Source of the DNA: a virus
Strand: one strand, 5' to 3'
DNA length: 58,350 nucleotides
IMG/VR virus record: IMGVR_UViG_3300029815_000015
Span: 1-58,350 of that record
Of the stretch, positions 1-41,478 are shown in pieces; position 1 is the first letter of the stretch, and every line of letters begins with the position of its first letter. The notes under the pieces are model-generated. The model made no database searches, had not been told where the DNA came from, and worked only from the letters and a program-made list of their open reading frames with translations. The translations under genes were made by a program, and so were the position numbers.

Positions 1-3000
1 GTGCTAACCAGTTTAAGAAAGCCGGTTATAATAGTGCGGAAGAATATGCAGGAAGTTTCCGTAAAAGATTTGGAAAACTTCAAAAGCAGTTGACAGGATA
101 TAAGGTTGATACTAACACTGGAGATGCAACAAATACTTTTTCGCACAACCTTGGTTTGGATTTGACAGAGGTAATGAACTACAACGCCGCTATTGCACAG
201 ATTACAAACTCTGCCGGTATGCTTGGTGAAACATCAATTGCAACTTCAAAAGCACTTACTATGTTATCAGCAGACTGGGCGTCTTTAGCAAACTTAGACA
301 CCGCTGACGTTATGCAAAATTTTCAATCTGGCTTAGTAGGTCAGTCTAGGGCGTTGTATAAGTATGGAATTGACATCACTTCCGCAGGGTTAGCACAAAC
401 GGCAATGAATCACGGTGTTACAGAAAGCATTAAGAACCTTTCGCAACAGTCCAAAATGCAGTTGCGTGTTTTGACTATGTTGGAACAGTCAAAGGTTGCA
501 TATTCGGACTTAGCACGGACAATTAACCAACCCGCAAACCAGTTGAGGATGTTGCAGGCTGGATTTAAGAAACTATCATTGACGATTGGCTCCTTGTTTA
601 TGCCGATTGTTCAGAAAGTGTACCCATACATAAATGCTATGGTTATGGTTTTGCAGGATTTCGCACAGTGGGTAGCGAAACTGGCAGGAATCAAACTTGG
701 TGATACGGATGGTTCACGGAAAACACCAGAGGCACCGGACTACTCCGATGCGGCAGACGATACGAATAAAGTTGCTAAGAACATGGATAAAACGGCTAAA
801 AAGACAAAAAAAGCCGCCGACAATTTGCAGGGATTTGATATTGTAAATAAATTGCAGGACAACAGTGATAGCGATAGTGGTGATACAGACCCTTCTGGTG
901 GAAATGCTAATATTGACCTTTCTAAGGATATTAGTGACGCATTAAAGAACTATGAAAAGATATGGGATAATGCTTTTAAGAGCAACCAGAACAAAGCAGT
1001 TGAGTTGTATAAGAAGATGAAGAAAGCAATCCTTGACGCATGGAAAGGTGGAGATTTCACTTCTCTTGGTTCGGCACTGGCTAACTGGATTAACAAGGGA
1101 ATAAAAAACATTCCATGGACAAAGATTAAAAAGACTACGAAGAAGATTGCTAAATCTCTTGCTACGTTCTTGAATGGATTTGTTAAAGACCTTGATTGGA
1201 CAAAACTTGGAGAAAACTTCTCCGAGGGATTGAATACATGGTTTGAAACATCATACACCTTTTTCAAGACGTTTGATTGGCTCAAATTCGGTCAAAGTAT
1301 TAAAGAGGGTATAACGGCTGCCATAAATAATTTTGACGGTGATTTAGCAGGAAAATCACTTGGAGCAAAGTTGCGTGGTATGATTCAGTTTGCTTTTGGA
1401 GTTATGGTCGACTTCCCATACAAAAACCTTGGAAAGAAAATTGGAGATTACATCAATGGATTTCTTGAAGAGATGGGAGAAGTCCGCAAGAATACTGGAT
1501 TAACTGGATGGCAGGAGTTAGGAAAGACAATCAGTGATGGAATTACTGGAATACTTGATACGATTGACACCGCACTTTCTACCGTAGATTGGTGGGAAGT
1601 AGGAAAAGCAATTGGAGATTTTCTTTCTGAAATAGAATGGGGAAAAACACTTTTGAAAGTAGGGAAAATAATAGTCAAGGGATTATTCAATGCTTTGAAA
1701 GTGGCTATTTCGGCATTTATTAGAGACCCATTAGGTATTGCATTTAAGTTATCAACCGTTCTTATTGGAGTGTTTGCCTATAAAAAATTAAAAATTCTTT
1801 GGGAATCACTAAAAACTGTTTTTAGTGATGGAATAAGCAATTCCTTAATTTCGGCAAAAATAAACTCAAAAGGTTTGACGGATAAATTTAGCGGTTTAGG
1901 GAGTAAAATGGGAAGAGCAATGGGAGTTGCTCTTGTTGCCGCCTATGGATGGTGGGAAAATAGTATTACTGCCGGTGGAGACGCAAAAGGCAATGTGGAA
2001 CGATATGCGAGCGGTACCGATGATAAGTCTATGTTGCTTAAAGAAGTTGTTCAGATGATGGATAAATTCGGTTATGGTTCTAATACTAATACAGTGGATA
2101 GACTTGTTGGACGTCTTAATAAAAAATTAGAAAGTGGAGAAATATCGGAGAAAACGATAAGAAAAGCACTTGATAAAGATTATAAGACAATGACTGATAA
2201 ACAATCCGTACAGTCGGCAGCAGACTTTTTGGATTTGCTTGGTGAAAGCAAAGGTAATGTTGCTACTAAGATAGATAAAGGCAAAAAAGAACTCAATGAT
2301 TATAAACCAATAATTACACAAACGACGAAATATTCAAAGGCTGTAGATACACTTAATAAGAAAATGAAAAAACTTGGAATTTCATCTTCCGAAAGTAAAT
2401 CCATACAGGACAAACTGAAAAAAGCACTCGAAGATGGTGAAATTACGTGGGAAGATTACAAAAAGATAACAGATAAGAACTACAAGTCAACAGATGCATT
2501 GAAGAAGAAAATTGATTCATTGAAGCCAAAAGCAGTAAAAATCAAGGCTGAAACATCTGGCGGTGATGATGTTGATAGTTTGCAGGGGAAAGTAGATAGC
2601 GTAAATAGCAAAACAGTAACAATTACGGCTGGAATTAAAGGGGTTGATATAAAGACGTTTGGCGATTTAAGTATTGCGATGAAAAACATGAAAAATCGTG
2701 ATATAAATGTGAATATTTCCGCTAATTTAAGGAAAGCGTGGTATAAATCTGTTCAGAAAGAATTGTATTCACGGACGTTTTCTATCAACGCAAATACAAA
2801 AGTGATAAAGGCTAGTGGTAAGGAAGTTGAAAAAGCAACTAAAAGCCAAACTGGAAAGAAATACAACGGAGAAAAGTTTAAGAAACTGATGAACGCTGTT
2901 GGAACCACACAAGACCAGTGGGGAAGAGTTGTTATACCTGGAGCAATAGATTACAATGGTAGTAGCAAAAAGGCTAAAGCGGCACAGCAGAGTAAAAAGT

Positions 3001-3813: not shown

Positions 3814-6800
3814 GTTATACAGCAAAAGTTTTTTATGTTTTGGAAAGCGACCCTACATATACATTGAAATATGATTCACTTGTAAAAGATGTAAATATCG
3901 GAGATTCGTTTAGTTTGTCTTTTTTGGATTTTGACTATAACAAAACGCATTACCACGTAAAATACGCTATCAATAACGGAAGTGTGTATAAACGTGGCGT
4001 AAATACGATTGACTGTAAAAGCATGATGATTTCGGATGATTATAGGTATATGTCTTGGTACGTGTTCTGCACAGAAGATGAAACAGATATTACTGGAGAC
4101 TGTGCAGTTTCCTATACTGACATAGCAACAGAATTATATTTGAGTATAAGTACAGGAAATTCGGATAGTGTAAGCACAAGAGGAAAAGAAACGCTAATAT
4201 CTGTAAGTATATCGCAAGGTTGTGTTAGCGATTCATTTGCCAGTTATGGCTCTACTTATAGTCCTACTATGAGTTGTGAAATGTATGCAGAAAATAACGA
4301 TTTTACGGATGCCCTTATTGCAAAGACATATTACGATAATACATTAAAAGGAACTATTGTAAATGCATGGATTCTTATAGGAAATGAATTTGCATATCCA
4401 GTACCTATCGGAAGATTTGTTGTAAAAGAAAATCCAACATACAACGGTGATACTGTTTCATTTACTGGAAACGGTTTAATGAGCGAATACATGGATAGGG
4501 CCAAAATCGTCATTAGTTCGCTAAACGAATATCACAAAACGGAATTGGAAGAAAAATACGTACCTAGTCAATTGCAGTTTATCTACACACGTGACGACGT
4601 TTATTATTGGGAGTATTTACCGCAAGACTTTTTGCGTGTCACAGGATGTCCGCTATACATTGATAATTGGAAAGATGTTTTGTCTGCAATCAAACAATAT
4701 AAGTTGTACCATTTGATGATTCCTATGTTATCAAATTTTGCGGACAATGAAGAAGATGGTTACGATTGGGATTGGGAAAGCAGAATCACGTGGAGAGATT
4801 TGTTGTCTGGCATAGCAGTTTTGTTGCGTGCAAATGTGATTGAAAAGAACGGTGCCTTTTATATTAAGCAGTTGCCAGAGTTGCAAGCAGATAACAATTA
4901 CAGACCTATATTTGGTGGAGATACCTATGATTCTAATGCGATTTTCGGGAACAACCTTATGTGTCCAAACAACGTATCTGTAAAGGCTAATAATTGGTAC
5001 TTTTACGAGACAAACAGTGACTATGTTGGATTTGGATATTATGACGGTGAATCCACGGTCGTATTGAATGACAAGGCAAGCAGTGTATCGAATGTAGAGA
5101 ATTATCCAGTGACTATTGAAACGCCTTGGATATTATACGAAACGCTTGACAGGAATACGGTTCATACGCATTTAGGGCAAGTTACGCCAATGCAGTGGAA
5201 AACAGGGTTATCCTTTTTGAATAAGGCGTTTGTTTACCATAAAGCGAGTATCGAAACAATGTACTGGCATCCTCTTATGTCGGTTGGCGAAATGCTTACG
5301 TTCGAGGACTATGACGGAGTTAAGAAGTATGTGTTTGTCGGAGAAATGACGCTACACTACGATGGTGGATTTTATGCGGAGATTACATCGCCTTGTGAAG
5401 TGACAGAGAGTAACACATCTTCTGGTGGTAGTAGCGGAACTAATAGTTACAACAATGGAACAATGGCGCAGGCAAGCGGAACGGTTACTAGTACAATCTT
5501 TGGTGCTATTTTCAAGGATGGAGTTATTACAAATAGTAAAATTGCGGATTCCACGATTGAGAATAGTAAGATTAAAAATTCTACAATAACCAACGCAAAG
5601 ATTGCGGATGCTACGATTGAATGGGAAAAGGTGTCGAAATCTTTTATTACGGATTTGACGGCAGATAATGCGTATATTGAACATCTGAAAGCAACTATCG
5701 GTGAGTTTGGATATATTACTGCCGAAAATGCTGATTTGACATACGCAACTATTACATCACTGCAAGCAGTAGACGGGAAGATAGATTCATTGTCCTCAAA
5801 GGCTATTACTACAGAAAACCTTAGTGCAAAGGTAGCAGACCTAGGCTATTTGTCAGCGGAGAGTGCAGATTTAAAATATGCAAACATCAAATTATCCAAT
5901 ATTGAAGTTGCAGATATTGCTACATTATTTGCAGAAGTTGGTCTTATTGATAGAGCAACAATCGTAGAAGGACATATCACTGGTTTTTTAGACAGTGTTG
6001 AAGTCAACGCCGCAAACATTACGGCCGGCACTTTAGTGGCAGACAGAATATTGCTAAAAGGCGAAAATGGTTTGCTTTATTCGCTGAATAATTTAGGAGA
6101 ACTTCAAAGTAAAACAGTTGATACTTTGGATGGATATATACTTACTGACCGGACCGTAAATGCAGATAAAATCGTAGCAAAAAGCATAACAGCAAATGAA
6201 CTTGATGTTGAAAAGGTTTTTGCGGATTCTGCTGTTATTAAAAAAATATTTTCGCAAGACGTGACGGCAACCGGAACAATCACTGGTGCAACATTAAAAG
6301 GTGCAAATGCAGAGATAGATAACGGTTTGATTGGTGGATTTAATATAAAGGAAGATGGAATATCAAAAGCATACACGAAAAGTAGCAGTGAAGCTTCCGA
6401 AAAGCAAGATTCATATGAATTAGACATATCAAGCAATGGTATTCCTTCATTTAAAGGAACTGGCCAAATATGGAAAGATAACAGTACAAAAGTTATTTAT
6501 GAATCAATTTTTGATAACACATTAACAATAGACCAGTATATGTTTTTAAATAATTCAAATATAAAACAATCATGGTTTAGAACGAAGTTTGCTGATTCAT
6601 ATGCCGGAAATATAACCATATCCGAATTAACATCAGACGGAGTATTGCGACAAAGAACTAGTTATGGACTAGGGTATGTAGCTAATAGATTATATGAAAA
6701 TGGAGAACTATCGGAAGAACTCCCATTTATGGTCGATTCCCCCCTTAAAATACTCTCTAATCATAATGCATCACTGACGAATTACGACTTACAAATTTCG

Positions 6801-7295
6801 TCTAATACTGGAAACCACATGAATATTGGACAAAGAACGATTCAAGCGGTCGACAAGAACAATGCTGCGACAACTTTATATTTAAACAGTTATGGAGGAA
6901 GTATTTCAATTGGTAGAGTTAATGGAGCTGGAACCACTACATTAAATGCTAATGTTGTTTTTGGAAAGCATTGTTCGAGTGTGACAACAACGACACCTAG
7001 TTCAACCATTTTATATGGTATTACAATGAATGGTGGATTATTTAAAGCCGTAGTATTTCGCAACTATCCAATCGCTTCAGCATCCCCTTGGGCAAGCATT
7101 GTTCAAACAAAGTTAATGTCGGGTGATTCCGGTGCAGCAGATGTTACCCAGTATCACAACATGGTAACTGGTAGAGGTGAATGTGTTAGAGTGGCTTTTA
7201 ATGCTAATACTGGAAACCTAGAAGTTAATGCACAATATAACGACATAACCAATGATACCCTGAACGGAATAGCGATATTCCCGGTGTTACAATAA
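3810..7295 (+). CDS. Tail fibre / host-recognition protein (1161 aa)
   Basis: ATGA overlap with the previous gene. Ser/Thr/Asn-rich with repeated ..ADSTIENSKIKNSTITNAKIADATIE.. and coiled-coil stretches (ADLTYATITSLQAVDGKIDSL..). Position after TMP. Confidence 0.75.
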   Translation: MSYTAKVFYVLESDPTYTLKYDSLVKDVNIGDSFSLSFLDFDYNKTHYHVKYAINNGSVYKRGVNTIDCKSMMISDDYRYMSWYVFCTEDETDITGDCAVSYTDIATELYLSISTGNSDSVSTRGKETLISVSISQGCVSDSFASYGSTYSPTMSCEMYAENNDFTDALIAKTYYDNTLKGTIVNAWILIGNEFAYPVPIGRFVVKENPTYNGDTVSFTGNGLMSEYMDRAKIVISSLNEYHKTELEEKYVPSQLQFIYTRDDVYYWEYLPQDFLRVTGCPLYIDNWKDVLSAIKQYKLYHLMIPMLSNFADNEEDGYDWDWESRITWRDLLSGIAVLLRANVIEKNGAFYIKQLPELQADNNYRPIFGGDTYDSNAIFGNNLMCPNNVSVKANNWYFYETNSDYVGFGYYDGESTVVLNDKASSVSNVENYPVTIETPWILYETLDRNTVHTHLGQVTPMQWKTGLSFLNKAFVYHKASIETMYWHPLMSVGEMLTFEDYDGVKKYVFVGEMTLHYDGGFYAEITSPCEVTESNTSSGGSSGTNSYNNGTMAQASGTVTSTIFGAIFKDGVITNSKIADSTIENSKIKNSTITNAKIADATIEWEKVSKSFITDLTADNAYIEHLKATIGEFGYITAENADLTYATITSLQAVDGKIDSLSSKAITTENLSAKVADLGYLSAESADLKYANIKLSNIEVADIATLFAEVGLIDRATIVEGHITGFLDSVEVNAANITAGTLVADRILLKGENGLLYSLNNLGELQSKTVDTLDGYILTDRTVNADKIVAKSITANELDVEKVFADSAVIKKIFSQDVTATGTITGATLKGANAEIDNGLIGGFNIKEDGISKAYTKSSSEASEKQDSYELDISSNGIPSFKGTGQIWKDNSTKVIYESIFDNTLTIDQYMFLNNSNIKQSWFRTKFADSYAGNITISELTSDGVLRQRTSYGLGYVANRLYENGELSEELPFMVDSPLKILSNHNASLTNYDLQISSNTGNHMNIGQRTIQAVDKNNAATTLYLNSYGGSISIGRVNGAGTTTLNANVVFGKHCSSVTTTTPSSTILYGITMNGGLFKAVVFRNYPIASASPWASIVQTKLMSGDSGAADVTQYHNMVTGRGECVRVAFNANTGNLEVNAQYNDITNDTLNGIAIFPVLQ

Positions 7296-7323
7296 ATAAT
7301 TCAAATTTAGGAGGTAAAAAGAA

Positions 7324-7503
7324 ATGGATGAAAACAAAATCACAATCATTGACTACGTGGAGAAGAAATTGTCTGCTGAAATCGCAGAACTTAAGGTTCT
7401 GCTTGCAAAGACGGAGTTTAAGGCTTTTGCTTTGCAGGAAGAAAACGAGCAATTAAAAGCAAAGTTGGCAGAAAAAGAGGAAAAATCCGAAAAGGATGAA
7501 TAA
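7324..7503 (+). CDS. Small coiled-coil protein (59 aa)
   Basis: SD AGGAGGT 7 nt upstream of ATG. Heptad-like E/K/L-rich sequence. Below the ORF-track length cut-off. Confidence 0.45.
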   Translation: MDENKITIIDYVEKKLSAEIAELKVLLAKTEFKAFALQEENEQLKAKLAEKEEKSEKDE

Positions 7504-7619
7504 TATTTTTGAATCCTACATATAATATATTACATGGCAATCCCATGTAATCAAGTTTCGGTTTGGGAGAGGGGTTGCAAATTCCCCTTTCCCTACAATT
7601 ATATGCTAGGAGGAGATTT

Positions 7620-7757
7620 ATGGTAGGAGAACGCAGGAAATATAGAAGAAAGTTAAAGAAACTTATTTCCAAGATGAAAAACGTAGATTCGTTGAGATAT
7701 TACTACGGGTACATTGCAGAAAAAGAAAGATTGAAAGGTAATACTTATAAGGTATAA
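7620..7757 (+). CDS. Small basic protein (45 aa)
   Basis: SD AGGAGGAG then ATG 7620. Lys/Arg-rich. The ORF-track version starts further upstream at a non-ATG codon. Confidence 0.35.
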   Translation: MVGERRKYRRKLKKLISKMKNVDSLRYYYGYIAEKERLKGNTYKV

Positions 7758-7765
7758 TGAAATGG

Positions 7766-7795
7766 AGTAGGATAAAAAACCTACTTCGTTTTTTT
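7766..7795. terminator. Terminator between convergent genes
   Basis: Stem AGTAGG/CCTACT followed by a T-run, lying between the + strand tail genes and the minus-strand repressor gene. Confidence 0.5.
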
Positions 7796-7820
7796 ATTTA
7801 CACAATAATGAATGGTATCA

Positions 7821-8177
7821 TTATTTAGTATCAGTTTTGTTTGCTCTCCAAAGCAGGTCAATTCCCTCTAAAATATATTTTTTGGCTTTTTCATCGAGGG
7901 TATAATATTTCTTAATGGCTTCTTTTAGTTCTACATCTTCTGAAATATGAGCATCCAAAATGGCATCTTCTTCTGAATATGTTTTATCTTCTCCATTAAC
8001 CAAATAATCAATAGAGCAATCTAAACATTTTGCAATTTTTCTAATTTTTGAAATTTTAGGCTCACTTTTACCCTTTTTCCAATCGGAAAATGTACTTTTG
8101 GGAAAATCACAATATCCTGCTACTTGTGCGTCATTTAAACCTTTTAAATCTCTTAATTTACAGTATCTTTCGTACAT
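7821..8177 (-). CDS. cI-like HTH (XRE-family) repressor, 118 aa
   Basis: HTH segment LNDAQVAGYCDFPKSTFSDWKKGKSEPKISKIRKIAKCL. Start moved to the ATG at 8177, preceded by AAGGAG. Divergent from a cro-like gene. Confidence 0.8.
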   Translation of the reverse strand: MYERYCKLRDLKGLNDAQVAGYCDFPKSTFSDWKKGKSEPKISKIRKIAKCLDCSIDYLVNGEDKTYSEEDAILDAHISEDVELKEAIKKYYTLDEKAKKYILEGIDLLWRANKTDTK

Positions 8178-8224
8178 AGAAAATCTCCTTATCAAAAAAA
8201 GTTGCAATTTCTCAACTTTTAGGG

Positions 8225-8253
8225 TTGACAATCAAGACTTCCTAATGTATTAT
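8225..8253 (+). promoter_or_regulatory. Rightward promoter TTGACA-17-TATTAT
   Basis: -35 at 8225-8230, 17-nt spacer, -10 at 8248-8253. 7-bp inverted repeat TTCCTAA/TTAGGAA (8239-8245, 8263-8269) is centred on the -10. Confidence 0.65.
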
Positions 8254-8276
8254 AAAAACAAGTTAGGAAATCTCAA
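8249..8276 (-). promoter_or_regulatory. Leftward promoter for the repressor gene (TTGAGA-16-TATAAT)
   Basis: On the minus strand, -35 at 8276..8271 and -10 at 8254..8249. This -10 overlaps the -10 of the rightward promoter. Confidence 0.55.
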
Positions 8277-8394
8277 CCAATTCAAAATTGAGGAATTTAT
8301 ATTATGTTTTTTGCACAATTCATAGTATACACGATTTTCTAACTTTTATCAAGACATAGTTGTGAAAATCGAACAACTAAAAAGGATTTTCGGT

Positions 8395-8427
8395 AAAAAG
8401 ACTGTTAGTGTGCCGTCACTAACAGTC
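8395..8427 (-). terminator. Intrinsic terminator (minus strand)
   Basis: 11-bp perfect stem GACTGTTAGTG/CACTAACAGTC with a 6-nt loop. T5 follows only on the minus strand. Confidence 0.75.
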
Positions 8428-8774
8428 CTTTACCCCAATTTTTATACCGTATGCACTTTGCAGTCTTTCGACGCATTGTACGACACCAATGCTTCTTAAA
8501 GCACTCTGCCACTTATGCAGTTTGGGTTCAGCATAATTTATTGCCATTAGTTGGCAGATTGCAAGGAACAAGCGGTGTAGTGTGACAAATATCGGAATGT
8601 CAACCTCGAGTTTTTAACGAACTTCTCTGTTCGGCTACGCTACACTTGATGTTACATTTTACTCCATTTTAACGTGCTGTGGCTTCACGATTGCGACCTT
8701 GCAAATGCGGAACAGGCAAATTCAAAATTGCTTTCAAGGTATACACCTCCTAAGATGAATTTACCTAAAATGGC
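8396..8774 (-). ncRNA. Candidate ~380-nt non-coding (or 22-codon leader-peptide) RNA in the immunity region
   Basis: Bounded by a consensus promoter (8809..8781) and the terminator (8427..8395). No ORF above 22 codons. GC-richer than the flanks, with many local hairpins. Confidence 0.5.
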
Positions 8775-8780
8775 TTATTT

Positions 8781-8809
8781 ATTATAACGAAAATCCTAAC
8801 GCAAGTCAA
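8781..8809 (-). promoter_or_regulatory. Consensus promoter TTGACT-17-TATAAT (minus strand)
   Basis: Reverse complement of 8781-8809 reads TTGACT tgcgttaggattttcgt TATAAT. Confidence 0.7.
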
Positions 8810-8825
8810 GAAAGGAGATGAAATT

Positions 8826-9035
8826 TTGGACAAGGGAAATAGAAAGAAAAGTTTTAAAAAGTTAGAATTGCTTGTTAATTCGAGAAACATTACCTTTTAT
8901 AAATTGGCTGATGAACTCGGATTGGCGAGAAGCACTTTTTCGGATTGGAAATCTGGAAAATCAATGCCAAAGACGGATAAATTGATTAAGATTTCAAATT
9001 ACTTTGGTGTAGAAATTTCTTATTTTATTGAGTAG
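8826..9035 (+). CDS. Cro-like HTH (XRE-family) protein, 69 aa
   Basis: TTG start 8 nt after AAGGAG. HTH segment ITFYKLADELGLARSTFSDWKSGKSMPKTDKLIKISNYFG. Confidence 0.7.
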   Translation: MDKGNRKKSFKKLELLVNSRNITFYKLADELGLARSTFSDWKSGKSMPKTDKLIKISNYFGVEISYFIE

Positions 9036-9049
9036 AGAAAGGAGCAGGC

Positions 9050-9778
9050 ATGAACGATTTAAGAATTTTTGAAAATTCAGAGTTTGGAGAAATCAGAACT
9101 GCAGTAAAAGACAATGAACCATTATTTTGTCTTAGAGATGTATGTAAGGTATTGGAATTGACTGCAAAAGGCGTAAAACAGAGACTTTCGGATGAGGTAA
9201 TTTCAAATTACCCCATCGAAGATACAGTTGGAAGAATCCAAAATGCATTGTTTGTTAATGAAGATGGATTGTATGACGTTATCTTGGAAAGCAGAAAGCC
9301 AAATGCGAGGGCGTTTCGTAAATGGGTAACTGGCGAAGTGCTTCCATCTATCCGCAAGAATGGCGGTTACATTGCCAATCAGGAGAATCTTACTCCGGAA
9401 CAGATTGTAGCCAACGCATTAGTTGTGGCACAGAACATCATAACTCAAAAGGACAAGCAGATTGAGGAAATGAAACCAAAGGCAAATTACTTTGACGCTT
9501 TGGTAGATAAGAAATTAAATACCAACATCCGTGACACTGCAAAGGAACTGGGTATCGGAGAAAAAGCATTTGTTTCTTTCCTTATTGAAAAAGGATATGT
9601 GTTCCGGCAGGGAAAACATAGAGACTTGCGTCCATATGCCAAATACGCAGAGAGCGGAAACGGCTTGTTTGTCTTAAAGGACAAGCACAACGAGCGGAAC
9701 GGTTGGACAGGACAGCAGATGTATGTCACTCCAAAGGGAAAAGAAACATTCCGTCTGCTTTTGGAAGAAAGGGAGTGA
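9050..9778 (+). CDS. Antirepressor (Bro-N N-terminus, KilAC-like C-terminus)
   Basis: FENSEFGEIRT.., RKWVTGEVLPSIRKNGGY (Bro-N signature). C-terminal half resembles phage antirepressor KilAC domains. SD GAAAGGAG. Confidence 0.8.
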   Translation: MNDLRIFENSEFGEIRTAVKDNEPLFCLRDVCKVLELTAKGVKQRLSDEVISNYPIEDTVGRIQNALFVNEDGLYDVILESRKPNARAFRKWVTGEVLPSIRKNGGYIANQENLTPEQIVANALVVAQNIITQKDKQIEEMKPKANYFDALVDKKLNTNIRDTAKELGIGEKAFVSFLIEKGYVFRQGKHRDLRPYAKYAESGNGLFVLKDKHNERNGWTGQQMYVTPKGKETFRLLLEERE

Positions 9779-9794
9779 GCCTATTATTCAGAAG

Positions 9795-10316
9795 ATGATA
9801 TTGGCGGTTCTGACATTTCTTCTTATTATAACAGTGGCAACAAGCGTGTTTAAGGATGTATACGCTTACGAGCCGGAATATGCACAAGAAGATACGTTAT
9901 TTATAAAAACAGAAGAACCGCAGGTAAATGTGATTCCAAATGCAAATACGAACAGTTCTTTGGAATCCGCAAAATACATAAAGCAAAAGAAAAAGTCAAA
10001 GAAGAAACACAAGGAAAGGAAAGGCGTTCAATTCTTGATAACTGCATATTGTCCTTGTTGCGATTGTTCAGAGGGGTACGGAAAGATAACTTCTACTGGC
10101 AAGATACCAAAGCAGGGAAGAACAATAGCGGTTGACCCTAAAGTCATACCGTATGGAACAAAGGTGAAAATCAAAGGTCTTGGAACATTTATAGCCGAGG
10201 ACTGCGGCGGTGCGATAAAGGGAAATAGAATTGACATATACTTTGAATCTCATGCAGACACAGAGAGATTCGGAGTACAAAGAAGAACAGTATTCATATT
10301 AGGAAAGGATGAGTGA
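9795..10316 (+). CDS. Membrane-anchored 3D-domain protein (173 aa)
   Basis: N-terminal hydrophobic helix MILAVLTFLLIITVATSVF. C-terminus ITAYCPCCDC..GRTIAVDPKVIPYGTKV..AEDCGGAIKGNRIDIY resembles the 3D (MltA/RlpA-like barrel) domain. Confidence 0.7.
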   Translation: MILAVLTFLLIITVATSVFKDVYAYEPEYAQEDTLFIKTEEPQVNVIPNANTNSSLESAKYIKQKKKSKKKHKERKGVQFLITAYCPCCDCSEGYGKITSTGKIPKQGRTIAVDPKVIPYGTKVKIKGLGTFIAEDCGGAIKGNRIDIYFESHADTERFGVQRRTVFILGKDE

Positions 10317-10318
10317 CA

Positions 10319-10450
10319 ATGATTAAGACAGATGCTAAACCGGCAACACCAGAATTGATTGCAAATTTAATTGAACTTGGTGCAATTTATGTGAAAGACG
10401 GAGAGTTTTATGCAAATGAACCGGGAACATACAAAAAAGAAAAGGAATAG
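10319..10450 (+). CDS. Hypothetical small protein (43 aa)
   Basis: ATG follows within 3 nt of the preceding TGA stop (possible translational coupling). Below the ORF-track cut-off. Confidence 0.35.
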   Translation: MIKTDAKPATPELIANLIELGAIYVKDGEFYANEPGTYKKEKE

Positions 10451-10542
10451 CACCCTTGACCGCAAATCAAACTGCTATTCCAGTAGTAAATAACTATGTG
10501 TTATTTGCGCTCATTTTATCAAATAAGGAGTGAAAAGTCAAG

Positions 10543-41398: not shown

Positions 41399-41478
41399 CG
41401 GCGATAGCATAATGGATAATGCGTTGTGTAGAATCCCACTATACACAAAGAATCGTGGTTCAAATCCACGATTGCCGA
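41399..41478 (+). ncRNA. Non-canonical tRNA-like element 1 (80 nt)
   Basis: 7-bp acceptor CGGCGAT/ATTGCCG. D-arm GCAT-AATGGATA-ATGC. T-arm CGTGG-TTCAAAT-CCACG. The anticodon arm is 7 bp with an 11-nt loop (or 7 bp with a 7-nt AAUCCCA loop in a shifted register). Confidence 0.5.

Follow-up and report, generated by a model that had tools for sequence, protein, structure and literature searches.

Phage immunity regions encode RNAs that oppose antirepressor or early genes, such as P22 sar and P1/P7 c4, which are ~70-80 nucleotides (nt) long and pair at the ant ribosome-binding region. In lambda, the promoter PRE lies beyond cro and fires back toward cI, giving a transcript antisense to the lytic-operon RNA, and the 3' end of the OOP RNA overlaps that of cII. 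Large and intricate orphan RNAs, ROOL and GOLLD (580-800 nt, usually near tRNAs), are frequent in Firmicutes prophages. A further orphan RNA, FuFi-1, was described by Weinberg et al. 2017 (PMC5737381), whose text credits it with features of a "sophisticated biochemical function", reports negative in-vitro self-cleavage tests and notes that such motifs rarely lie in 5' untranslated regions (UTRs); in the literature searched, this is the only paper that mentions FuFi-1, and none was found after 2017. Here we analyzed a putative RNA gene of ~380 nt on the minus strand of a 58,350-nt stretch of viral DNA (IMG/VR record IMGVR_UViG_3300029815_000015, positions 1-58,350; hereafter, the window), for which the original prediction had proposed a long antisense or structured regulatory RNA inside a cI/cro switch. 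The element is a member of the known orphan family FuFi-1 with a new, extended architecture, and not a new class.

When the whole window was scanned against Rfam 15 at gathering thresholds, the only match was to FuFi-1 (gathering score, 59.6 bits), covering the 3' 163 nt of the unit (Table 1). These 163 nt belong to FuFi-1 by every feature of the family that could be tested. The full multi-stem architecture, with P1 and its internal hairpin followed by P2 enclosing two hairpins, is present and aligns untruncated, and each stem is 85-99% paired across 24 relatives, with compensatory changes. The 3' end is a Rho-independent terminator with a 12-pair stem and U5; the 11-bp terminator flagged in the original prediction is the family's own. 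The Firmicutes/Fusobacteria hosts and phage neighbourhoods of FuFi-1 have their counterparts here in Clostridia hosts and in cI-like, cro-like and Ant neighbours. All 15 diverse relatives tested also pass the Rfam threshold, at 123-152 bits. The RNA had been thought to be of no recognized class, which does not hold for this full-length, high-scoring part; the 5' part (8559..8780) matched no Rfam family even at E values up to 10. The window RNA and the published motif share identical stems and the 3' intrinsic terminator, and both are phage-associated, from Firmicutes and of the small-RNA-gene class. The Rfam model differs in spanning only the 3' 43% of the conserved unit, without the 5' domain, the Shine-Dalgarno (SD) sequence and mini open reading frame (mini-ORF), the inter-domain helices H2 and H3, and the consistent placement in a cI/cro switch that are described below.

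Relatives were retrieved with patterns taken from the FuFi-1 core only, giving 128 loci from IMG/VR and 47 loci from GTDB species representatives, around half of the latter being chance matches in unrelated phyla. With nhmmer profiles built separately for the two halves of the RNA, the FuFi-1 domain was found in 144 sequences (the window and 143 loci), and the relatives form 29 clusters at 95% identity. The 5' domain, the ~215 nt that separate the promoter from the FuFi-1 model, accompanied FuFi-1 on the same strand in 139 of the 144 sequences. It is complete in 90 of these 139 and adjoins FuFi-1 with a gap of 1-21 nt; the other 49 have a shorter variant, in which the first 100-110 profile positions are retained. 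Of the five sequences without a match to the domain, three are truncated at the locus end, L082 carries an internal deletion and L123 lacks the domain. The reverse scan, using a pattern from the 5' domain only, recovered 11 new loci, in eight of which both domains are adjacent, with one cut and two chance matches. Given the adjacency in 139 of 144 sequences, the reciprocal scan, the covariation and the two helices (H2 and H3) that join the domains, the halves are one RNA, in which the 5' ~215 nt are a conserved domain that earlier models did not include.

The genome matches came from Lachnospiraceae, Roseburia, Eisenbergiella, Acetatifactor and other Clostridia. Near-identical viral contigs of the window element are present in IMG/VR, and a distant-mode blastn search of the GenBank phages in INPHARED gave no relative of the window region or of two divergent full-length elements. 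The shorter variant occurs in the clusters of L029, L043, L122, L129, L145 and L157, the last being a locus of the isolate Lachnospiraceae bacterium 10-1 (scaffold KE159810.1); it retains the 5' hairpin, the SD, the mini-ORF, the UUGCCC/UUCC motifs and H3, with other sequence replacing the H4-H6 core. L082 is an L029-like copy that has lost most of the 5' domain together with the 5' strand of P1. In L145, a Lachnospiraceae metagenome-assembled genome, an ORF of 545 aa resembling an IS66 transposase (by eye) lies convergent to the unit and 55 nt downstream of it; as the usual switch genes are missing there, this is probably a disrupted prophage.

The fold was analyzed with the nhmmer profiles, RNAalifold and pair counting on an alignment (A1) of 24 full-length representatives (471 columns; mean column identity, 64%). 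Compensatory changes were present in 44 of the 62 pairs predicted by RNAalifold. A structure of 73 pairs, including three tertiary or pseudoknotted helices, was then scored, and 95.7% of its cells were paired, compared with 35-44% in slid controls in which the 3' partners were shifted by 1-3 columns. Changes on both sides were found in 54 of the 73 pairs, which supplies the compensatory covariation with related phages that a structured RNA had been expected to show, and the covariation score was 0.50 against ~0.1. For four of five measures none of 500 shuffles reached the observed values, and for the remaining one, the count of further pair types, four of 500 did. The paired columns contain 89 G:U cells vs 16 A:C cells, and selection therefore acts on the minus-strand RNA and not on its complement. 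This supports the original view of a discrete structured RNA on the minus strand, bounded by promoter and terminator signals.

Covariation was found in H3 to H6, in P1, P1a, P2, P2a and P2b, and in the helices that tie the two domains together. H2 (columns 88-90 with 413-415) staples the 5' domain to a conserved GGU tract in the FuFi-1 3' region and is 98.6% paired, with two of its three pairs compensatory, and H3 directly adjoins P1. The loop of P2a kisses the loop of the terminator hairpin (columns 376-382 with 446-452), with 99.4% of cells paired, six of seven pairs compensatory and up to five pair types at the pair 379/449. The P1a loop forms a pseudoknot with the 3' tail (columns 334-338 with 424-428) that is 96.7% paired and has 17 UA and 7 CG pairs at one position. 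The helix between UUGCCC and an upstream GGGCAA is 92% paired and mostly invariant. The long-range pair GTGTAG/CTACAC noted from the single sequence proved to be H6; two hairpins noted alongside it, TGCCA-actaa-TGGCA and AGTGCTT-taag-AAGCATT, fell outside the covariation-supported fold, their bases being in the internal loop of P1 and in P2/P2a. A conserved CUCCUU element was considered as an anti-SD sequence and rejected, as it pairs with the AAGG of AAGGUCGCAA to form the covarying H3. A scan of all column pairs, of limited power with 24 sequences, gave no covarying antiterminator, only trivial purine/U-tract runs. The 380-nt RNA of the window has a minimum free energy (MFE) of -110.9 kcal/mol (z = -3.9), a value equalled by none of 100 dinucleotide shuffles.

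Table 1 Coordinates of the RNA gene, its structural elements and the neighbouring switch features in the window.
Feature	Position	Strand	Remarks
RNA promoter	8809..8781	-	-35 TTGACT 8809..8804, 17-nt spacer, -10 TATAAT 8786..8781; 11/12 match
5' domain	8559..8774	-	~215 nt between promoter and FuFi-1 model
FuFi-1 domain (Rfam RF02986)	8558..8396	-	135.2 bits, E 1.8e-29, model 1-175 of 175
Intrinsic terminator	8428..8395	-	stem 8428-8417 with 8409-8399, then U5 ending at 8395
Shine-Dalgarno AGGAGG	8751..8746	-	8 nt upstream of TTG start (8737)
Mini-ORF MKAILNLPVPHLQGRNREATAR	8737..8669	-	22 codons + stop; contains RNA motifs UUUGCCU and UUCC
5' hairpin GCC/GGU	8774-8772 with 8765-8763	-	
Helix AGGUAAAUUCA/UGAAUUUGCCU	8766-8756 with 8724-8714	-	encloses SD and start codon
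H2 (CCG/CGG)	8710-8708 with 8449-8447	-	5' domain to FuFi-1 3' region
H3 (UGCAAGG/CCUUGCA)	8703-8697 with 8566-8560	-	covaries
H4 (CGUG/CACG)	8689-8686 with 8676-8673	-	covaries
Pseudoknot H5	8683-8680 with 8666-8663	-	covaries
H6 (GUGUAGCG/CACUACAC)	8645-8638 with 8582-8575	-	encloses variable hairpins; covaries
P1	8558-8552 with 8511-8505	-	covaries
P1a hairpin	8533-8529 with 8520-8516	-	covaries
P2	8504-8499 with 8458-8453	-	covaries
P2a	8492-8489 with 8477-8473	-	covaries
P2b	8472-8470 with 8465-8463	-	covaries
Kissing loop	8486-8480 with 8416-8410	-	P2a loop GUGUCGU with terminator loop ACGGCAC; 7 bp
PR-like promoter	8225..8253	+	TTGACA-17-TATTAT, 11/12; faces RNA unit
cI-like repressor gene	7821..8177	-	Pfam HTH_3, Phage_CI_repr; downstream of and co-oriented with RNA
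cro-like gene	8826..9035	+	Pfam HTH_19, HTH_3, HTH_26 (Cro/C1-type); start 17 nt beyond RNA -35
Antirepressor gene	9050..9778	+	Bro-N + ANT

The signals that delimit the unit are likewise found across the family, and most of what had been noted about them from the letters of the window was borne out. The promoter, TTGACT-17-TATAAT on the minus strand, agrees with the consensus at 11 of 12 positions and is the joint best promoter-like site within 6500-10500; a sigma-70-type promoter (at least 8/12) is at the equivalent position in all 29 cluster representatives, with a TG extended -10 in 15. The terminator hairpin, GACTGTTAGTG-ACGGCA-CACTAACAGTC with 11 bp and T5 after it (8427..8395), is indeed ~380 nt downstream of the promoter; in the alignment its stem has 12 pairs, 98.2% paired and ten of them with compensatory changes, and a U-run follows it in all representatives. 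The unit is also GC-richer than its flanks, as it had seemed by eye, at 0.43 vs 0.28-0.31. A terminator-scan program did not list the window hairpin and did list the equivalent one in the relative L030; our guess is that a G-T extension of the stem leaves just four T in the tail window. The RNA is predicted to start at ~8774-8775, and the unit is best described as a predicted, independently transcribed RNA gene of ~380 nt, from ~8774 to 8395.

The statement that the region holds no ORF above 22 codons was wrong as made, since longer ORFs with ATG, GTG or TTG starts are present: on the minus strand, ones of 50 aa (8419..8571) and 35 aa and a GTG-started version of the mini-ORF of 25 aa, and on the plus strand within the unit, ones of 45, 44 and 37 aa. 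These long ORFs are not conserved in the relatives, where single-base indels break them in the alignment. Antisense-strand ORFs of 68-79 aa occur in L030, L045 and L052 (for example, MLNF[FL]T…); their similarity mirrors the conserved RNA, and automated annotation is likely to list them as hypothetical proteins. We rejected a protein-coding interpretation for either strand, the 68-79-aa antisense ORFs being missing from the window and broken by indels in the alignment.

The coding potential that does recur is the mini-ORF in the 5' domain, for which the AGGAGG, 8-nt gap and TTG start reported earlier stand as described. An SD (AGGAG, GGAGG or GGTG) followed after 5-10 nt by ATG or TTG and an ORF of 10-25 codons was found in all 24 aligned representatives, with ATG and TTG interchanging and the start at two alignment positions. 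In the MFE fold of the window, the SD and start codon pair locally (GAGGU/ACCUU). The peptide itself varies: the conserved UUGCCCUGUUCC is read in two frames (…LPVP/CPVP… vs …LPCS/LPRS…), and in L003, the closest divergent relative of the window, a 1-nt deletion shifts the frame after codon 7. The conserved nucleotides of the mini-ORF pair elsewhere, UUGCCC with the upstream GGGCAA and UCC in H2, and its stops are mostly in the 5' arm of H3 or just after it. From these patterns the conserved feature appears to be the ability to load a ribosome and run it for a few codons, rather than the peptide. Because a ribosome finishing the mini-ORF would have to open H2 and H3, translation and the two-domain fold are probably mutually exclusive. 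Two readings fit the mini-ORF, a 5' stabilizer of a type found in Firmicutes RNAs, made of the 5' hairpin and a bound ribosome, or a translation-sensing switch.

The RNA occupies a fixed position in the switch. The order in the window is the cI-like gene, the PR-like and PRM-like promoters, the RNA, the cro-like gene and ant, and the rightward transcript from 8225 has to run antisense through the entire RNA gene before it arrives at the cro-like gene and ant; no plus-strand promoter of at least 9/12 was found between 8253 and 8826. The proposed location within the cI/cro switch, on the strand opposite to this rightward transcript, is thereby confirmed, and L030 has the same gene order and promoter set, including the convergent PR-like promoter. 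The Pfam matches agree with the cI and cro assignments made by eye, and cro-like and cI-like genes are beside the unit across the family. In five of the 29 clusters (window, L030, L003, L112 and L136), the RNA lies between a divergent upstream gene, cro-like where inspected, and a co-oriented cI-like or LexA-like gene, the downstream flank of L003 being too short to hold the repressor. In ~18 of the 29, a small convergent gene has its stop codon -27 to +8 nt from the last base of the RNA; of the convergent ORFs at the RNA 3' end, 12/22 match HTH_26 (Cro/C1-type) and 5/22 DUF739. A divergent repressor follows beyond the convergent gene (13/21 candidate ORFs match HTH_3, three of them also Peptidase_S24), in several cases with an ImmA-like ORF after it (by eye), and the next early lytic genes start 36-230 nt beyond the RNA promoter. 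In both layouts, therefore, the RNA is oriented in the direction of the repressor gene and opposite to the early lytic operon.

The proposed tie to the antirepressor fared less well. Homologues of the window Ant accompany the RNA in only ~5 of the 29 clusters. The association with ant therefore characterizes this phage and not the family, and a specific antirepressor link was rejected on this ground.

The RNA gene is bracketed by a 16-nt inverted repeat, AGGATTTTCGGTAAAA/TTATAACGAAAATCCT (8383-8398 with 8782-8797, 88% complementary), whose arms are immediately beyond the terminator and within the spacer of the promoter, respectively. The spacer contains a GTTAGGA motif in common with the 8225-8276 promoter region, and the repeat shares a GTTAGGA/GAAAATC core with sites at the PR/PRM-like promoters (8235-8273, 8333-8345 and 8176-8186). 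The motif is degenerate, with three of its nine window-wide matches within this 700-bp region. These sites may be operators that place the RNA promoter under the control of cI or Cro. A mobile cassette resembling a miniature inverted-repeat transposable element was set aside as improbable, as the -35 is outside the inverted repeat and the arms resemble the operator-type GTTAGGA sites.

The cro-like proteins of L052, L037, L132, L158, L174, L130, L147 and L139 end in …TKNC or …TKN, and the terminator arm and U-tract of FuFi-1, read on the opposite strand (ACAAAAAACTGTTAG), supply the codons of these residues and the stop. Given this conserved overlap, the RNA and the cro-like gene are probably inherited as one module. 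Elsewhere, the viral contig of L044 carries at 812-892 (+), ~2.8 kb from its FuFi-1 unit, a DUF3800-VII RNA (RF02967; 57.5 bits vs a threshold of 36.2), which is a second orphan RNA of the same 2017 survey (PMC5737381). In the window, a strong 13-pair hairpin with T-runs on both sides (7759-7792) separates the rightward tail/late genes from the 3' end of the cI-like gene and is likely a bidirectional terminator insulating the two modules.

Compared with the described systems, the locus resembles lambda PRE and OOP in topology only. As there, a promoter directs transcription back toward cI and antisense to the lytic-operon RNA, and in most relatives the 3' end of the RNA overlaps that of a convergent early gene, as OOP does with cII; in the window the downstream gene is the co-oriented cI-like gene, and the OOP-type 3' overlap is seen in the ~18 of 29 clusters with a convergent gene. 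Unlike PRE, the promoter here comes without a CII-type activator and looks constitutive, a conserved 380-nt fold and a strong terminator stand between it and cro/cI, and the window unit is located between PR and cro instead of beyond cro. No sequence or Rfam relationship to PRE/OOP was found.

The original prediction likened the RNA to sar and c4. The likeness lies in being an immunity-region RNA that would oppose antirepressor or early genes, and the window transcript crossed in antisense does carry ant. The window RNA differs in being five times longer (~380 nt), and what is conserved in it is structure, not complementarity. It is predicted to start near 8774, downstream of the cro-like SD and start (~8812-8826), and therefore overlaps neither these nor ant at 9050. 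No sar or c4 homology was detected, FuFi-1 being the only credible Rfam match at E values up to 10 in 8300-8900. The analogy is thus weak, with no overlap of the cro or ant ribosome-binding site and with Ant in so few clusters, and the deep conservation of loops and tertiary pairs exceeds what a cis-antisense RNA needs.

The 5' end recalls the STAB-SD element of cryIIIA and leaders of the ermC type with ribosome stalling, having a 5' hairpin, a strong SD and a very short ORF of unconserved peptide ahead of a long RNA. Such an arrangement would be expected of an RNA that a bound ribosome shields from a 5' exonuclease. STAB-SD needs no start codon, whereas here the start codon is always kept, and the mini-ORF, unlike 5' stabilizers, overlaps nucleotides of long-range helices, so that translation and folding would compete. 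ROOL and GOLLD are likewise large, intricate orphan RNAs of Firmicutes prophages; they differ in that the window RNA has no Rfam match to them, is in the switch region and has its own terminator and mini-ORF. A tmRNA- or tRNA-like element was rejected, since ARAGORN found only a tRNA-Ser gene elsewhere in the window (41399-41478 (+), anticodon aga).

In sum, the observations describe a conserved, two-domain, heavily paired RNA that has a site for loading ribosomes and is framed by promoter and terminator signals of its own, at a fixed position and orientation in the switch. Our preferred explanation, held tentatively and at somewhat less than even confidence, is that it is a lysogeny-side riboregulator of Lachnospiraceae-type temperate phages. 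Its near-consensus promoter would fire head-on against PR-type transcription, and convergent transcription together with RNA-RNA pairing to the lytic transcript would damp cro and the genes downstream. The paired region would be within the 570-nt cro leader in the window, and the cro 3' end and the next spacer in most relatives. Read-through of the terminator would run antisense through cro and/or in the sense direction into the repressor gene, in the manner of lambda PRE. The elaborate fold, 5' hairpin, SD and mini-ORF may give the RNA stability, and its activity could depend on ribosome occupancy, as a ribosome finishing the mini-ORF would melt H2 and H3. Several points weigh against this explanation. 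In the window the RNA does not cover the ribosome-binding site of either cro or ant. Candidate promoters for the cI-like gene itself lie downstream of the terminator (8352..8324 and 8276..8249, the former type being conserved in L030). Regulated read-through is unsupported, since no alternative antiterminator pairing was found. A cis-antisense role alone leaves the invariant loops, the two pseudoknots and the kissing loop unexplained, which argues for a specific partner. The relatives examined are from gut Clostridia, and the promoter, the start site, the termination efficiency and the translation of the mini-ORF are sequence-based predictions.

The specific partner is at the center of a second explanation, which we regard as a serious possibility, that the molecule is a trans-acting structured RNA and its antisense overlap is incidental. 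The partner could be a host or phage protein, the ribosome, RNA polymerase or a small ligand, or the RNA could have catalytic activity of its own, and the immunity location would only set its expression state, for example high in lysogens and shut by lytic transcription. Many loop and junction nucleotides are invariant across clusters at a mean column identity of 64%, and the tertiary design is intricate, with an H-type pseudoknot, the pseudoknot of P1a with the 3' tail, the terminator kissing loop and the 5'-3' staple. The two local arrangements relative to cro indicate that the RNA behaves as a portable unit, and the judgement of a "sophisticated biochemical function" in the text on FuFi-1 (PMC5737381) points the same way. 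A purely trans role would, however, not need the strict orientation relative to the lytic operon seen at every locus, and only the HTH switch genes, and no other protein family, are consistently adjacent. As for catalysis, the self-cleavage tests given in that text were negative (PMC5737381), on a construct that lacked the 5' domain if the published motif was used.

The remaining explanations take the mini-ORF or the downstream repressor as the point of the unit. In one, the promoter at 8809 is an establishment promoter and the RNA with its mini-ORF is a cis-acting repressor leader or attenuator that decides between termination and read-through into cI, the 380-nt RNA being a by-product. Attenuators classically combine a leader ORF with a terminator after it, the mini-ORF ends where a ribosome would disrupt H2 and H3, and a co-oriented repressor does lie downstream, starting ~165-220 nt past the terminator in the window, depending on the start codon used, within 0.2-0.7 kb in most relatives and at ~1.7 kb in L044. 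But the gene directly downstream is convergent in ~18 of 29 clusters, so that in most members the RNA is not the conventional 5' UTR of a riboswitch or attenuator leader, and such motifs are rarely in 5' UTRs according to the survey text (PMC5737381). No conserved antiterminator alternative was detected, and cI has candidate promoters of its own. The tertiary fold also holds the terminator loop in place, suggesting that the terminated RNA is the product. We therefore think an attenuator quite improbable. That the effector is the 22-aa peptide made from the mini-ORF, with the downstream RNA as a long structured 3' UTR, is very improbable: the SD and start are universally kept and an N-terminal pattern M-x-K-[KL]-L-x-[LC]-P recurs, but conserved RNA motifs with pairing partners elsewhere account for the recurring residues, the frame over the most conserved nucleotides differs between clusters, and with lengths of 10-25 codons and the frameshift in so near a relative as L003, neither a conserved frame nor a conserved peptide was found.

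Relative to Rfam and to the text of the 2017 paper, so far as it describes the motif, the new elements are the 5' domain with the inter-domain helices, the universal mini-ORF and the rule of placement in the switch region. FuFi-1 is, in that text, one of a handful of orphan bacterial RNAs that their discoverers singled out as likely to have a sophisticated function (PMC5737381). The natural RNA is about twice the length of the catalogued motif, and the earlier in-vitro tests, if made on the published motif, were without the domain that pairs with its core; this suggests that in-vitro work limited to the published 175-nt motif would test an incomplete molecule. It also carries a conserved translatable mini-ORF whose ribosome would unzip the helices between the domains. 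The fixed place and orientation in the switch provide an assayable phenotype, lysogenization and induction, in phages of Lachnospiraceae that are abundant in the human gut. A bolder reading, which we consider unlikely, is that the catalogued FuFi-1 is the 3' half of a ~380-nt, two-domain, RNA-based lysis-lysogeny decision element, in which a constitutive PRE-like promoter would be combined with a sensor fold remodelled by a ribosome, ligand or protein, tuning the opposition to cro and early lytic expression or feeding repressor synthesis. If so, the RNA would do the integrating job that CII does in lambda, and an RNA decision element would be a new type of component for the classic cI/cro paradigm.

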